Virus record (IMG/VR): IMGVR_UViG_2579778842_000003
Direction: 5' to 3' (one strand)
Origin: a virus
Lineage: Duplodnaviria > Heunggongvirae > Uroviricota > Caudoviricetes
DNA: 64,000 nt
Positions 2,688 through 46,389 of this stretch are shown here, in pieces (within the stretch, counting starts at the first letter, position 1; each line of letters begins with the position of its first letter). The notes beneath the pieces were generated by a model. The model made no database searches and had not been told where the DNA came from. It worked only from the letters and a program-made list of their open reading frames with translations. The position numbers and the translations under genes are program-made.

Positions 2688-5600
2688 ATGAACAAGCTAT
2701 CTATTGGGGTGTTTCGCTGTTCAAGTGTCAGCGAAATATTGAAATACATTAGGGCAATAACATCTCACCGAGCGCCGATTAAATACGGCGTGGAAAAGGT
2801 GGAAGGCAAAAGCTATGACCGACTGCGCCGGGAGGCGAATCAGAAGGCGATAGATTTGCTTAATTCACTGGTGGACAGCGCGACACTGACAGATGAACAG
2901 CGCCAGATCCTGGCTGGGTACACCGGTGAAGGCGGCATTGGCGGGTCCGTCTCCGAATATTACACACCAAAGCCGATCGCTGAAGGTGTCTGGGAGATCA
3001 TGAAGCTCTACGGCGCGGACGTAGGTAACACTCTGGAACCATCGGCGGGCACCGGCGTTTTTAATGAGACAAAACCGGTTGGTACGGTGATGACTGCGAC
3101 TGAGATCAGCAGTGTTTCCGGTCGTATAAACCAGTTGTTACACCCGGAAGACAGCGTACAGATTTCCCCGTTCGAACAGCTGGCTATAAGCACACCTAAC
3201 GATTCATTCGACCATGTTGTGGGTAACGTTCCGTTCGGCGGTCGTGATAACACACGCAACATCGATAAGCCTTACGCAGAAGAAACGGACATGGGTTCTT
3301 ACTTCATGCTCCGCATGCTGGACAAGATAAAGCCAGGCGGATTCATGTGCGTGATTGTGCCGCCGTCCATTGTTTCAGGTTCAAACATGAAGCGGTTACG
3401 CCTGCGCCTATCACGGAAAGCAGAATTTCTTGGTGCCCACCGCTTGCCTACCGGTACTTTTGACGCAAACGGGACCAGTACGGTCGTAGATGTGGTGCTG
3501 ATGCGCAAACATCCGGCAGAGATGGCTGAGAAAATCCCCCTGGTGGATGAAAGCACTCTTGAATCAGCAAATGTGCTTTGGCCAACGTTTATTTCTGGCA
3601 AGTGGTTTGAAAAGGATGGCCGCCGGTTTGTTCATGGCACCCAAGAAAAGGGCTTCCGGGGGCGTATTGAGGTTCGTGCCGACGGTCAGATTGATAACCA
3701 GGCTCTTAAAGCGAAGCTGATTCATCGTTTCGAAAGCCGTATCGACTGGTCTTTGCTCGATATGGCTGAACCGTCACCGACCGCAGACGTTGTTGGTGAA
3801 GGGGAAATGCGCCTGATTAATGGCGTATGGCAAAAATATGCTGGTGGTCGCTGGATTGAAGCTGATGCCGGGAAGGAACTTAAGATCGATGCTGCCAGTT
3901 ATGGCGCGGATAGCTGGGAGGCTCTTCAGCGTAACCTGACTACAACAGAAGGCCGTCTCGGTATGACATTTACCCAGATGGCAAATGTCCGCGATAAGTA
4001 CACCACATCAATCAGCGACGATATGGTGCAGCTGGTGGACTGGATTAACAGCCAGCCTGAAAAATACCGTGAACGCTTGTATCGCGGGGCGATGATTGGC
4101 CGGATGTTAATTGAATATCAGGATATGAAGGCCGCCGGGCATAGTGCTGAACAAATCGAACAGCAGCGCCTTTCTCTGGTATCCCGTTTGCAGGCAGAGA
4201 TTGACCGTTTTGGTAACCCCGGTCGCGGTCCGATAGCGAAATTATCGGGGAGCGGTGCGCGCGCCTGGTTTGCTTTCCGTGGTGCAATTAAGCTGGATGG
4301 CACTATTTCTGACGAGCTGACAGGAAAACTGGTTACGCATGATTCCAGCGCCAGTTATGACTCCACCAGCTATCAGGACACCCTGCGTTATCTCTACAGT
4401 GATCTCACTCGCGATCCAATCCAGCTCGATGATTTCCGCCTTGCGTTTACCGGCGAACTGCCAGCCAGTGATGATGAGTTGCTTAATTTATTGGCCAGCA
4501 CCCCTGGCATTGCGGTTTCACCGTATGGCGGGATTGTTCCGTTCGCCCGCGCCACCAGCGGCGACATTAACGAGATAGTGGCTCCAAAACAGGAATTCCT
4601 CGCCACGCTCCCCGACGGTCCAGTAAAGAACAACGTCCTTAATCAGCTGGCAGCGATCGAAGAGAAGCGCATCAAGACGCCAGCAGAGAATATCCGCTTT
4701 AAGCTCAATAGCCGTTGGTTCGACCGTTCCGTCATTCTGGAGTTTTTGCAGGAAAACGGCTATCCGGATCTGCGCTATGTGCAGTCAGTGCAGCTGGAAG
4801 GCGACGAAATGGTTTCTGACACCTATCACGGTGGTGATGGCCTGTTCGTCGGGCACCGATACGGTGTCGTCCAGCGCAAGGATAAAGAAACAGGCGAGAT
4901 CCGCTACGAGTGGGACCGTAAATCAGGAGAAAACGCGACCGGGTTCCCGGCACAGCTGGAAAAGTATCTCAATGGTGCGCGTATCGGTGGCAAAGATAGC
5001 GCGACGGCGAACGGCTATCGTGAGCAGATGGCACTGCTTGAGGACCAGTTCAATAAGTGGATCAAGACGCACGATCGCTACGATGAGCTGGTTGCCAAAT
5101 ACAACGATGTGTTCAATAGCAATATCCCGTATGAACACTCTGGCGATCCGCTTGGGTTGAAGGGATTAAGCGGTAAGCGCCAGCCATTTGATTACCAGAA
5201 TAGCGAGGTGCGCCGACTGTCCGAAGATGGGCGCGGCATCCTGGGCTTCGGTACCGGGCTGGGTAAAACCACGACCGCGCTGGCGCTTGAGACGTTCAAC
5301 TATGAGAACGGTCGCTCCACCCGTACTGCTTATGTAGTGCCTAAATCAGTGCTGGAAAACTGGTATTACGAAGCAAAAGAATTCCTGAGTGAAGAGGCAT
5401 TCAGTAACTACCTGTTCGTCGGTCTTGATGTGCTGATGGATGGCGATCAGATTCGCCAGGTGCCGGTGCTCGATGAGAACGGTAAACCTGTTCTTGGTAC
5501 TGATGGCACTCCAGTTATGCGCGATGCTCTTAAGCTGGCAGATGAAGCCACTATCACAGCGCGGATGAACGCGATCCCGCACTCAAACTACCGTGCAGTC

Positions 5601-44433: not shown

Positions 44434-44509
44434 TGGTGGCCCCTACCGGACTTGAACCGGTGACCGTGCGATTATGAGTCGCCAGCTCTAACCACTGAGC
44501 TAAAGGGCC
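44434..44509 (-). tRNA. trnI: tRNA with CAU anticodon, Ile2-like (lysidine type)
   Basis: 76-nt cloverleaf ending CCA, anticodon loop CTCATAA; resembles E. coli ileX as recalled. Confidence 0.7.
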
Positions 44510-44536: not shown

Positions 44537-45364
44537 TTATTTCACCGGAACAAACGGAACAGCGGTATTACTGGTCATATACTGCGGTAATGTACCGTTC
44601 CATTTGTTGATCGCTTCCAACTCCATAACACCGGGGTTCTGGCGCAGAGCTTCACCACGTAAACGAATGGCATCAGCTTCGGCCTGGGCTTTTGTGCGAA
44701 TAGCATCAGCCTGTCCGGCAGCTTCCGCGCGCAGCATGTTGGCCTCTGCTTCACGTTGTTTGACCTCTTGCTCGCGTTGCAGGGTTTTTTGGTTTGCCGT
44801 GACTTTGGCGTTAATACTGTCAATAACTGTTGGCGGGTATTCTGGCTTACCTACATAAGAGAGGCTCATCACCTGAATGCCGATTGGCGTCATTTCTTCC
44901 TGAATGTCTTTAAGGGCTGCATCAAGCAATTCAGATTTGCCACCGTCGATAAATTTGTCGGTGGTCATTTTGCTGGCTAACCGGTTCAGAGCATCTGCAA
45001 CCTTCTGGCGTAGATCGGTATCAGTAATATCATCTACACCTTTGCGATAGGTCTGAAATACCGTTGTGACTTTTGCTGGATCAACCTTGTAGGCTACGCC
45101 GATGTGGTAACCAATGGTTGTTCCGTCGCTCATCTGGAAGCTGAACGGCTCATCGTATGTCTTCATTTGCTTAAAGGTCGGGAAGATATAAACTTCAGTA
45201 TTCAAGCCTGTCCAGTAGCGACCAACGCCAACTACTTCACCGATACCTTTATCATCCCCCAGCTTATTTACTTTGATCCCTACGTTACCTGGCTCTACCC
45301 GATCGCATCCGGTCAGACATAAAGAACCCAAAATAATCGCTGCACTAATCAACGTTTTTTTCAT
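44537..45364 (-). CDS. plp: SPFH/band-7 domain lipoprotein, 275 aa
   Basis: Lipobox LCLTGC after signal peptide; position as P1 plp. Confidence 0.55.
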   Translation of the reverse strand: MKKTLISAAIILGSLCLTGCDRVEPGNVGIKVNKLGDDKGIGEVVGVGRYWTGLNTEVYIFPTFKQMKTYDEPFSFQMSDGTTIGYHIGVAYKVDPAKVTTVFQTYRKGVDDITDTDLRQKVADALNRLASKMTTDKFIDGGKSELLDAALKDIQEEMTPIGIQVMSLSYVGKPEYPPTVIDSINAKVTANQKTLQREQEVKQREAEANMLRAEAAGQADAIRTKAQAEADAIRLRGEALRQNPGVMELEAINKWNGTLPQYMTSNTAVPFVPVK

Positions 45365-45581
45365 TAATTAATTTCCTGGTTTTTTCACGAAAAAAGACTA
45401 CTGCGAAAGCCGGGTAAATGAGCGCGAGAAGGACTCCCAACAATACAAGTATTGTGCTGTTAGATGAGATCATATTTGGCAAAAGCCAAACATACAGAAC
45501 CAGTGACACAATCAAACAGAGGACGGCATAAATATATAACCGCACCCATAGCGTTCGACATTTGTTCGGATTGTTCTGCAT
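45345..45581 (-). CDS. upl: Small membrane protein, 78 aa
   Basis: Two hydrophobic helices; directly upstream of plp. Confidence 0.4.
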   Translation of the reverse strand: MQNNPNKCRTLWVRLYIYAVLCLIVSLVLYVWLLPNMISSNSTILVLLGVLLALIYPAFAVVFFREKTRKLINEKNVD

Positions 45582-45740
45582 CCTCTCACTCCATTATTTA
45601 ACGAATAAAAAAGCTGCGGTGCCGGGTGCCTCCCGGTGTCCTTTGGCTGGTTATCCACCGTGGACGGGGAAACAAGGAGAAATGAATGGACTGATATAAC
45701 CATTTCCCCGCGTGCGCTTAGCCGCATTCACCGCAACGGA

Positions 45741-46310
45741 AAGAGCATTCTTGGTGGACCTGTAGATTGGGATATGAACCCGTTACAGGAGAATGCTCTT
45801 ACCTGTTACGTGCTCCGTTTCGTGGAGCTAACGGCGGGTGATCGGGCCGCACCAGGCTGGACTTATTTCAGCGTTATGCTCATGCCAGAGAATCAAACTG
45901 TGATGGTCGGTGCTGAACTCCGACACAGGGTTGTAGCAAGCCCCGCAAAGCGCGCACTACTGTAGTTGCGGCACATCAGCCTGTGCATTCACCACAATGT
46001 TGAGAACACTGGTTGTCACGCTGCAACGCAACATTTATTCGTAGATTGGGATATGACCCCGTTACGCCAGTGTTCTCAACGTTGTAGTGCCGGTTACGGT
46101 TCCGGCCAGGCCTCTTCCTCAACGGGGTGTTCTCCATACGGACTACCGTTTATTGGTCGTTCCTGCGGTTTATGTTGTGAAGCCAGATGCTTATCTTCTG
46201 GTTGCTTCAAAGAGCTGCACTTCATCACAACGGTAAGGGTACTTCGTAGGGATTCGAACCCTCTGCCAAGCTCGGCGATCTCCGACGTCGCAAAATACCC
46301 TTACCTGTTG
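45741..46310 (-). repeat. Three tRNA-like minihelix elements (long stem enclosing a T-arm-like hairpin) upstream of the tRNA pair
   Basis: Direct repeats GTAGATTGGGATATGA(A/C)CCCGTTAC at 45762-45786 and 46041-46065 inside long inverted repeats; third at 46236-46310 with GGGTTCGAATCCC; none folds as a canonical cloverleaf. Confidence 0.45.
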
Positions 46311-46313
46311 TGC

Positions 46314-46389
46314 TGGTGCCGATTAACGGACTCGAACCGCTGACATCCTGCTTACAAGGCAGGCGCTCTACCAACTGAGCTAAACCGGC
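46314..46389 (-). tRNA. trnT: tRNA-Thr (UGU)
   Basis: 76-nt cloverleaf with CCA, anticodon loop CTTGTAA, T-loop TTCGAGT. Confidence 0.8.

Follow-up and report, generated by a model that had tools for sequence, protein, structure and literature searches.

The early-RNA signals of phage T7 and the stems that flank the rRNAs are cut by host RNase III. RNase III processing of the late transcript of phage lambda is named in the title of Daniels, Subbarao, Blattner and Lozeron (1988), as listed in PMC7547250, and maturation of DicF by the same enzyme is stated in PMC6212723, which cites Faubladier (1990). Here we describe four long hairpins in the ban operon of a P1-type phage-plasmid. They lie in a window of 64,000 nt (the whole stretch of DNA that was analysed, IMG/VR record IMGVR_UViG_2579778842_000003, in whose coordinates the positions below are given unless another record is named), the query being 100% identical to Punavirus P1 MH422554. 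Three of the hairpins (E1, E2 and E3) lie within this C1-repressed, minus-strand operon and a further copy (E4) lies in its leader. A sequence-only reading had singled out E1-E3 as tRNA-like elements on the strand of tRNA-Thr and tRNA-Asn; all of its strings are present where it had placed them, and we confirm its observation, with corrections, and find its interpretation partly supported.

These data indicate that E1-E4 are very probably members of a structured-RNA family and not tRNAs. The best explanation overall, to which we assign a probability of roughly 55%, is that they are conserved-family hairpins of the ban-operon RNA and most likely substrates of host RNase III. We observe their structure, their strand, the family to which they belong and their placement beside folded RNA units, and from these we infer the nuclease and the consequences of its cleavage.

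The hairpin family and its strand

The wider family was traced by a pattern scan of one genome per species, which gave mostly chance matches (approximately 67 expected, by our own estimate) and lambda contamination, and from which only Enterobacterales matches that fold as hairpins were retained. The same arms occur in approximately 20 Enterobacterales species, around interiors that differ from species to species, with GGUGAAU and a GGCUGA-loop hairpin as the 3' flank and with a small hairpin or terminator upstream. The covariance model R1 was trained on phage lambda and 20 chromosomal enterobacterial copies and contained no P1-like sequence. In the 64 kb it found exactly four significant sites, all on the minus strand, the next match scoring 10.8 bits. 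E1 scored 67.4 bits (E 2e-15) on the minus strand and 20.8 bits on the plus strand, E3 49.2 bits (E 8e-11) and 20.9 bits, E4 30.2 bits (E 5e-6) and 13.9 bits, and E2 27.8 bits (E 2e-5) and 11.7 bits respectively, a minus/plus ratio of 2-3x at the four sites.

The family layout consists of 6 bp, a bulged base, 2 bp, a mismatch and 10 bp with a U·G pair third from the top, and the stem measures 19-21 bp in 13 of the 19 interior types, whatever the interior. Selection acts on the RNA structure: among 70 distinct family sequences, 97.4% of cells are paired and both sides have changed at 12 of the 18 pairs; these values were reached by none of 500 shuffles, and slid controls were 37-59% paired. The 70-sequence alignment was fitted to R1 and is therefore biased towards structure; in an independent check with MAFFT/RNAalifold, using the arms only, with interiors replaced by GAAA, from 20 element types, nine of 13 pairs were compensated. 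A U·G wobble occupies one fixed position in 43 of the 70 sequences, where the other strand would have a C·A mismatch. In addition, the sense fold was the more stable in 57 of 69 unique variants and the antisense fold in 11, and G·U pairs in these 69 numbered 186 on the tRNA strand and 121 on the complement. The strand-specific R1 scores, the G·U asymmetry and the covariation together support an RNA on the tRNA strand, and bear out the earlier suggestion that the elements are small structured RNAs.

In chromosomal prophages, the copies have Q-like antiterminator genes upstream and lysis genes or a holin downstream, which is the late-leader position, as in lambda. R1 detected no family member in 933W or DLP12. 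Rfam has no entry for the family, and the lambda copy matches none of its models; we conclude that the family is widespread and uncatalogued in Rfam. An IMG/VR pattern scan followed by hairpin extraction gave at least 19 (the count is approximate) unrelated interior types on the same arms, and even the close relatives P1 and P7 have the same arms with different interiors.

Anatomy of the four hairpins and their operon

With the P1 and P7 annotations as a guide, the ban operon runs from Pban and the C1 operators through a dicF-like leader region, E4, tRNA-Asn, tRNA-Thr, E3, E2 and E1 to an STnc100-like domain, downstream genes, tRNA(CAU) and ban. The two genuine tRNAs ahead of E3 are tRNA-Asn(GUU) at 46467-46392 and tRNA-Thr(UGU) at 46389-46314, both on the minus strand, and approximately 700 nt after tRNA-Thr are without a convincing gene. 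E1-E3, which had been described as upstream of this tRNA pair, thus lie downstream of both tRNAs in the direction of transcription.

E3 (46312-46226, minus strand; dG -41.6, z -5.4) has a 21-bp stem with the arms CACAAC(A)GGUAAGGGUAUUUUG / CGAAGUACCCUUACCGUUGUG. The 22-bp stem of E2 (46089-45990, minus strand; dG -54.2, z -6.3) is formed by 'type B' arms, CACUACAACGUUGAGAACACUGG / CCAGUGUUCUCAACAUUGUGGUG, which have no bulge and one C·A mismatch and are the longest inverted repeat in the 64-kb window. E1 (45810-45732, minus strand; dG -37.4, z -3.75) has the arms CGUAAC(A)GG.AAGAGCAUUCU / AGAAUGCUCUU.CCGUUGCG, with pairing extendable to 45812 and 45729. At most 1 in 200 shuffles folded as well as E1, E2 or E3 in each case. 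E1 and E3 match the family layout exactly, save for a paired base at the mismatch position of E3. The fourth copy, E4 (46751-46671, minus strand), lies approximately 200 nt upstream of tRNA-Asn, is found in most P1-like loci, has the family 'bulge' base paired and has an interior without likeness to a T-arm. A 16-mer of E3 had been seen to recur in the leader; it does, at 46737-46752 rather than 46738-46755, and is the 5' arm of the complete hairpin E4. Counting the conserved bulged A and one mismatch as tolerated, the stems are 19-24 bp long, rather than the 11 to 15 bp first given.

The interiors of E1 and E2 share a 25-bp direct repeat (45762-45786 and 46041-46065), which we confirm as 96% identical and matched by none of 100 shuffles. 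In E2 it is contained in an apical module at 46040..46066 (minus strand), CGUA-ACGGGGUCAUAUCCCAAUC-UACG, and in E1 in one at 45759..45789 (minus strand), CCUGUA-ACGGGUUCAUAUCCCAAUC-UACAGG; a third version of this module, with its sub-stem compensated, occurs in locus L122. Each of the three elements had been said to enclose a T-arm-like hairpin, and this stands for E3, whose T-loop is canonical (GGGUUCGAAUCCC; AGGG-UUCGAAU-CCCU at 46248..46262, minus strand). It adjoins a 7-bp acceptor-like helix (UAUUUUG/CGAAGUA) that is continuous with the long stem. The description fails for E1 and E2, whose loop (GGGKUCAUAUCCC, as UUCAUAU and GUCAUAU) has U at position 58, and hence no A58, and belongs to a different conserved module. 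The label of 'tRNA-like minihelix' suits E3 at most.

Family members elsewhere have a small hairpin or an intrinsic terminator just 5', and E1 and E4 are each preceded by a small hairpin, that of E1 being GCUCC-ACGAAAC-GGAGC at 45812..45828 (minus strand). E2 has the conserved 3' flank at 45971..45993 (minus strand), GGUGAAU plus a small hairpin GCACA-GGCUGA-UGUGC, which in other genera is GCGCA-GGCUGA-UGCGC, a compensatory change. A further small hairpin (GAAGCaaCCAGA...UCUGGCUUC; 46179..46208, minus strand) belongs to a 51-nt spacer that in relatives lies upstream of another hairpin or of tRNA-Ser, and is followed by an orphan CACAAC at 46179-46174 that looks like a broken 5' arm. CACAAC was not enriched genome-wide (31 observed and 33 expected).

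Some neighbouring features of the operon deserve mention. Within the annotated dicF-like region of P1 (~46922-47023), approximately 170-190 nt downstream of Pban, there is a terminator-like hairpin (UGCCCAUCUUCGGGUGGGCG plus U7) at 46941-46960 (minus strand); a short DicF-like RNA may be produced from the P1 leader, in which case the tRNAs would depend on read-through. The tRNA at 44434-44509 (minus strand) is tRNA(CAU) Met according to ARAGORN and tRNA-Ile2 (lysidine type) in the P1 annotation. At 44537-45581 (minus strand), an SPFH/Band_7 lipoprotein-like gene and a 78-amino-acid membrane open reading frame (ORF) replace tciA, tciB and tciC of reference P1; some records call these two 'Plp' and 'Upl', in conflict with the names as first used in P1.

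Proposed processing by RNase III and competing explanations

Helices of approximately two turns and fixed length, with an exchangeable interior and a site between folded RNA units, are what would be expected of an RNase III signal. RNase III substrates are recognized here as at least 20 bp of mostly uninterrupted helix, and none of the stems has more than one bulge or more than one mismatch. Duplexes cut by RNase III have G-C/C-G pairs between the two cuts and are enriched for U-G in the distal box (PMC6212723, PMC11780869). A G-C pair lies near mid-stem in all 20 element types, and in 65 of the 70 sequences of the R1-fitted alignment, and this and the distal U·G agree qualitatively with the in vivo E. 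coli RNase III motif (Altuvia et al. 2018). The idea that the elements are processing modules is thus the one that we favour, although for RNase III rather than the RNase P or RNase E first proposed, given the two-turn helix and the homologues in the late leader of lambda and the dicB operon of Qin, two transcripts reported to be processed by this enzyme.

Judged by this anatomy, it is about an even bet that E1-E4 serve as RNase III processing hairpins between tRNAs, small RNA (sRNA)-like domains and mRNA. Host RNase III would make staggered cuts in the middle of each stem. Cleavage would detach the folded unit upstream (a terminator hairpin, an sRNA or a tRNA with its CCA end), which would keep a short tail to be trimmed by exonucleases; the apical hairpin would come off as a small RNA, and the downstream RNA would be left with a new 5'-monophosphate end.

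Several points weigh against RNase III processing as the whole explanation. That the RNase III sites of lambda (1988) and DicF (1990) coincide with the family hairpin is something we infer. Across genera, sequence is conserved in the lower stem (CACAAC.GGUAAG / CUUACCGUUGUG), at the bulge and at the mismatch; RNase III makes few demands on sequence, and conservation in excess of this need hints at a more specific partner. In addition, some interior types are conserved with covariation of their own, an example being the T-loop type of E. coli, Kluyvera and Erwinia, so that the interiors are not all free-drifting filler. Finally, CRISPR interference (CRISPRi) over trnT, plp and upl leaves P1 plating unaffected (PMC10695390), and any role would therefore be dispensable in the laboratory.

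The first alternative places the function in the interior: the stem would be a scaffold and the apical domains functional small stable RNAs, such as tRNA-elbow mimics, base-pairing regulators or decoys, e.g. against tRNA-targeting nucleases of the host or of competitors. This is compatible with excision by RNase III, and we regard it as possible but improbable. In its favour is an interior type not found in the window, H11, which has a canonical T-loop hairpin (GYAGRG-UUCGACU-CYCURC) and occurs in E. coli phage-plasmids, Kluyvera and Erwinia (loci L172 6215-6332, L179 6734-6852, L009 ~3799-3916 and L006 2410-2527). The stem of H11 varies with compensation around an invariant UUCGACU loop, and the interior also has a second hairpin and a conserved AUGCGAG. 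The H11 interior is a candidate functional small RNA domain, and its retention across genera with compensatory changes suggests that some apical domains may be functional by themselves. The module ACGGGNUCAUAWCCCAAUC of E1 and E2, which occurs in three contexts with a compensated sub-stem, also speaks for a function of the interior, as do the perfect T-loop of E3 stacked on its 7-bp helix and the allele-like difference between the P1 and P7 interiors on the same arms. However, some relatives have lost or altered interiors. Ro157c2YLVW (locus L002, ~1460-1525), which has an extra tRNA-Tyr, shows a clean 13-nt loss of the E1 'T-arm' (GGGUUCAUAUCCC), and in SJ46 (locus L005, ~1647-1671) a 279-bp deletion exactly between the 25-bp repeats has fused E1 and E2 by recombination through these repeats; these two phages are intact in other respects. 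Degeneration of the E3 T-loop is seen in its Klebsiella homologue, and one P1-like contig has a mutated version. A search of the window for a site complementary to the E1/E2 module returned just the two copies themselves, and we know of no stable RNA species from these elements.

A bolder version of this, speculative and less probable, is that the 20-bp stem is a bacterial counterpart of the primary-microRNA stem, an RNase III 'cassette holder' for interchangeable small RNAs in lambdoid, P1-type and SSU5-type phages, from which small RNA domains would be excised out of tRNA transcripts and late or early leader transcripts. The E3 and H11 domains would then mimic the tRNA elbow and interact with host factors that bind tRNA or with defence nucleases directed at tRNA. 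If the apical domains are functional, they would represent a general phage device for small-RNA delivery.

It is very unlikely that the hairpins are generic structure that keeps approximately 2 kb of untranslated RNA folded against Rho loading and exonucleases, with no specific partner. The 731-nt stretch as a whole does fold far better than its shuffles (z -5.85), and polymerase must pass a long leader and the terminator-like sites at 46960-46941 and ~45615 to reach ban. However, this explanation leaves unaccounted for the fixed stem length, the positions of the bulge and the mismatch, the conservation of sequence across genera and the precise abutment to upstream 3' ends.

We also weighed decayed tRNA genes, functionless remains of a once longer array, which had been among the first suggestions for these elements. 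In favour of such an origin, relatives have extra Tyr, Ser and Arg tRNAs within this stretch, the region is a patchwork of modules, E3 retains a canonical T-arm with an acceptor-like helix, and a possible relic of a tRNA-Thr 3' end lies directly upstream of E2 at 46085..46105 (minus strand; CCGGAACCGUAACCGGCACUA compared with ..CCGUUAAUCGGCACCA). This relic is suggestive only, since its alignment score merely ties with the best shuffle; in CMS-2020a, an intact tRNA-Thr abuts an E2-type hairpin. Taking RF00005 at 29 bits or more, or an ARAGORN call, as the cut-off, the tRNA models find only tRNA-Thr, tRNA-Asn and tRNA-Met(CAU) in the window. Neither ARAGORN, by default or with introns allowed, nor Rfam RF00005 at E up to 10 gave any call on E1-E3, in keeping with the earlier remark that none folds into a canonical cloverleaf, and at the same E limit the hairpins matched only noise-level microRNA-like models of Rfam. 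Lowered thresholds and the mitochondrial and transfer-messenger RNA modes of tRNA detection added nothing beyond one overlapping call, an ARAGORN 'tRNA-Tyr' at 46238-46332 at the 80% threshold, which we rejected as spurious, given its overlap of 19 nt with tRNA-Thr. Where E3 would have an acceptor end, it has a base-paired CCC, and just 28 nt separate its acceptor-like helix from the T-arm; E1 and E2 lack such a helix, and their loop, besides the missing A58, has U, G, C or A at position 54 across relatives. By local alignment, the interiors resemble the tRNAs of the array no more than shuffles do, the likeness of E3 being confined to its T-loop. The part that covaries is the long stem, which is absent from any tRNA; in lambda, in Qin and in many prophages without a tRNA array, it encloses unrelated interiors that are not tRNAs, and the E1 'T-arm' is deleted in Ro157c2YLVW. 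The description of the elements as decayed tRNAs is accordingly very doubtful and largely refuted.

An action at the DNA level, through MITE (miniature inverted-repeat transposable element)-like terminal inverted repeats, attC-like sites or 'boundary sequences' for module shuffling, is highly improbable. The AAC...GTT arm cores, the bulged base and the variable centres are superficially attC-like, mosaicism is strong with break points at the arms, and identical arms carry different interiors; mosaicism is, however, expected as a side effect of conserved sequence patches. The strand-asymmetric scores, the G·U wobbles kept on the transcribed strand only, an orientation that is always that of the operon, the absence of any further R1 copy in the 64 kb, outer repeats (GTTGTGR) that do not fit GTTRRRY, and fixed distances to RNA features (a CCA end or a terminator U-tract) all argue against it. 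Two specific candidates were compared directly and rejected. The integron attC was set aside on the boxes GCACAAC / GTTGTGR compared with RYYYAAC / GTTRRRY, with one misfit base per side, and on the RNA-strand-specific asymmetry; a MITE was set aside as all four copies lie in one operon and one orientation, with flanks that lack target-site duplications.

Equally improbable is a protein-coding function on the plus strand with incidental hairpins, as NC_005856 would have it in annotating upl (45774-45965) and plp (45966-46343) with predicted promoters, since, although both ORFs are present in the window, variable sites among relatives are not in excess at third positions (counts at codon positions 1/2/3 are 6/11/11 in upl and 13/17/22 in plp), neither has a Pfam match, plp crosses tRNA-Thr in antisense, the start codon (ATG) of upl is part of the E1 apical loop and is deleted in Ro157c2YLVW, P7 and D6 have a tRNA-Ser module instead of most of upl with neither ORF annotated there, and the covarying RNA structure lies on the opposite strand. 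The upl and plp ORFs are probably spurious and not genes, and we suggest that these annotations of P1 be replaced by non-coding RNA features.

Related loci and comparison with known systems

The same kinds of hairpin recur beside tRNAs in related phage-plasmids. In D6 and P7, a true tRNA-Ser stands between E2 and an E1-type hairpin with another interior, and such hairpins accompany the tRNAs for Asn, Tyr, Thr and Ser in CMS-2020a (E. coli host) and in pJN2-26, a Klebsiella phage-plasmid. Behind tRNA-Thr, the hairpin begins 1 nt past the CCA end (as E3 does here); behind tRNA-Ser, it begins 2 nt past the tRNA, and with tRNA-Asn it shares the terminal CA, a 2-nt overlap. In all loci its orientation is that of the operon. 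The tRNA arrays of enterobacterial phage-plasmids are thus made up of 'tRNA + hairpin' modules that recombine at conserved arms.

A second non-coding module adjoins E1. At 45609..45735 (minus strand), an STnc100-like domain starts with the GGUGAAU flank of E1, is closed by UGCGGUG/CACCGCA and is followed by a U-run; the U-run should terminate transcription ahead of the downstream genes. Rfam RF02076 matches 45735-45615 with 37.8 bits (gathering score 47; E 3e-6) over model positions 31-147 of 206. The domain can be aligned closely with the spacer between dicF and dicB in K-12 Qin, and also with D6 and with STnc100 of 933W, with which it has GGUGAAU...CACCGGGAGGCACCCGGCACC in common. Although the match is sub-threshold, homology of the STnc100 core is clear in the alignment. 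STnc100/PasD sRNAs are prophage-borne (bioRxiv 10.64898/2026.05.13.724894). The P1 domain differs from STnc100 in that it consists of the core only, has its own U-run and adjoins E1 without being part of the hairpins, whereas 933W has STnc100 and yielded no member of the hairpin family. Separately, a leader-proximal type I-E CRISPR spacer of E. coli EC-1639 (NZ_LR025101.1, ~3872432-3872465) matches 45613-45646 at 34 of 34 positions, a match also present in a second chromosome; the STnc100-like end is thus a target of natural CRISPR immunity in E. coli.

Among systems without homology, phage T7 early RNA (R1.1 and other sites) and the 16S and 23S stems likewise place a helix of approximately two turns between functional units of a transcript, and in rRNA operons that transcript also has tRNAs embedded in it (PMC8708148). 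The T7 sites, however, are cut at an internal loop and have no sequence similarity to the P1 hairpins, and in the rRNA stems it is distant flanks that pair, with the product enclosed. The T4 tRNA cluster includes species 1 and 2 (rnaC and rnaD), structured non-tRNA RNAs that are co-transcribed with tRNAs, and murine gammaherpesvirus 68 produces tRNA-pre-microRNA hairpin transcripts in which the hairpin directly follows a viral tRNA-like unit. In both, as in P1, a hairpin RNA starts where the 3' end of a tRNA lies, with no homology; the T4 species are matured by RNase P and the herpesvirus hairpins by tRNase Z and Dicer. YrlA, the bacterial Y RNA (RF02553), has a long end-to-end stem around a tRNA-like T-arm module, as seen here, but the P1 elements have no D-arm mimic and the sole weak YrlA match was to the real tRNAs; to our knowledge, E. 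coli lacks an orthologue of the Ro protein Rsr.

The homologous systems are closer. K-12 Qin has a family member between ydfC and dicF, approximately 100 nt upstream of dicF (locus L226 13169-13283, MG1655 1649168-1649282), with the compensated arms CAUAAC-G-CG.AAGCGCAUGG / CCGUGCGCUU.CGGUUGUG. The domain that comes after E1 has its homologue in the Qin dicF-dicB spacer, and the P1 leader, too, has an annotated dicF-like region, although the order of the modules differs and Qin is without tRNAs. Taken with the STnc100 alignments, this indicates that the P1 ban-operon RNA is built from the non-coding modules of lambdoid early and late leaders plus tRNAs.

The lambda late leader also provides two side observations. 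A second GCACAAC, approximately 60 nt downstream of its hairpin (L224 ~1125-1145; lambda ~44925-44945), can pair with the 3' arm of the hairpin (GUUGUGCUG/CAGCACAAC), a pairing that the global minimum-free-energy fold prefers and that represents a possible alternative structure. An identical 71-nt copy of the lambda late leader is present on short, low-coverage contigs (L132, L162 and approximately 20 further loci) assigned to Pseudomonas, Oceanobacillus, Bradyrhizobium, Enterococcus, Kitasatospora and others, and is lambda DNA contamination of public assemblies.

The hairpin of the lambda late leader itself (J02459 ~44787-44863) has arms as in the P1 family, CACAAC-A-GGUAAGAGCAUUG / CAGUGCUCUUUCCGUUGUG, in the same 6-bulge-2-mismatch-10 layout, and scores 75.9 bits with R1, being one of the copies used to train the model. 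It begins 7 nt past the U-tract of tR', the terminator of 6S RNA. In lambda as in P1, the hairpin thus lies in a long untranslated phage leader, right after an independently folded RNA unit; in lambda this unit is the 6S RNA terminator, whereas in P1 it is a tRNA or a small hairpin, and the interiors are unrelated. One hairpin family thereby joins the 700-nt stretch of P1 to the late leader of lambda and to the DicF operon.

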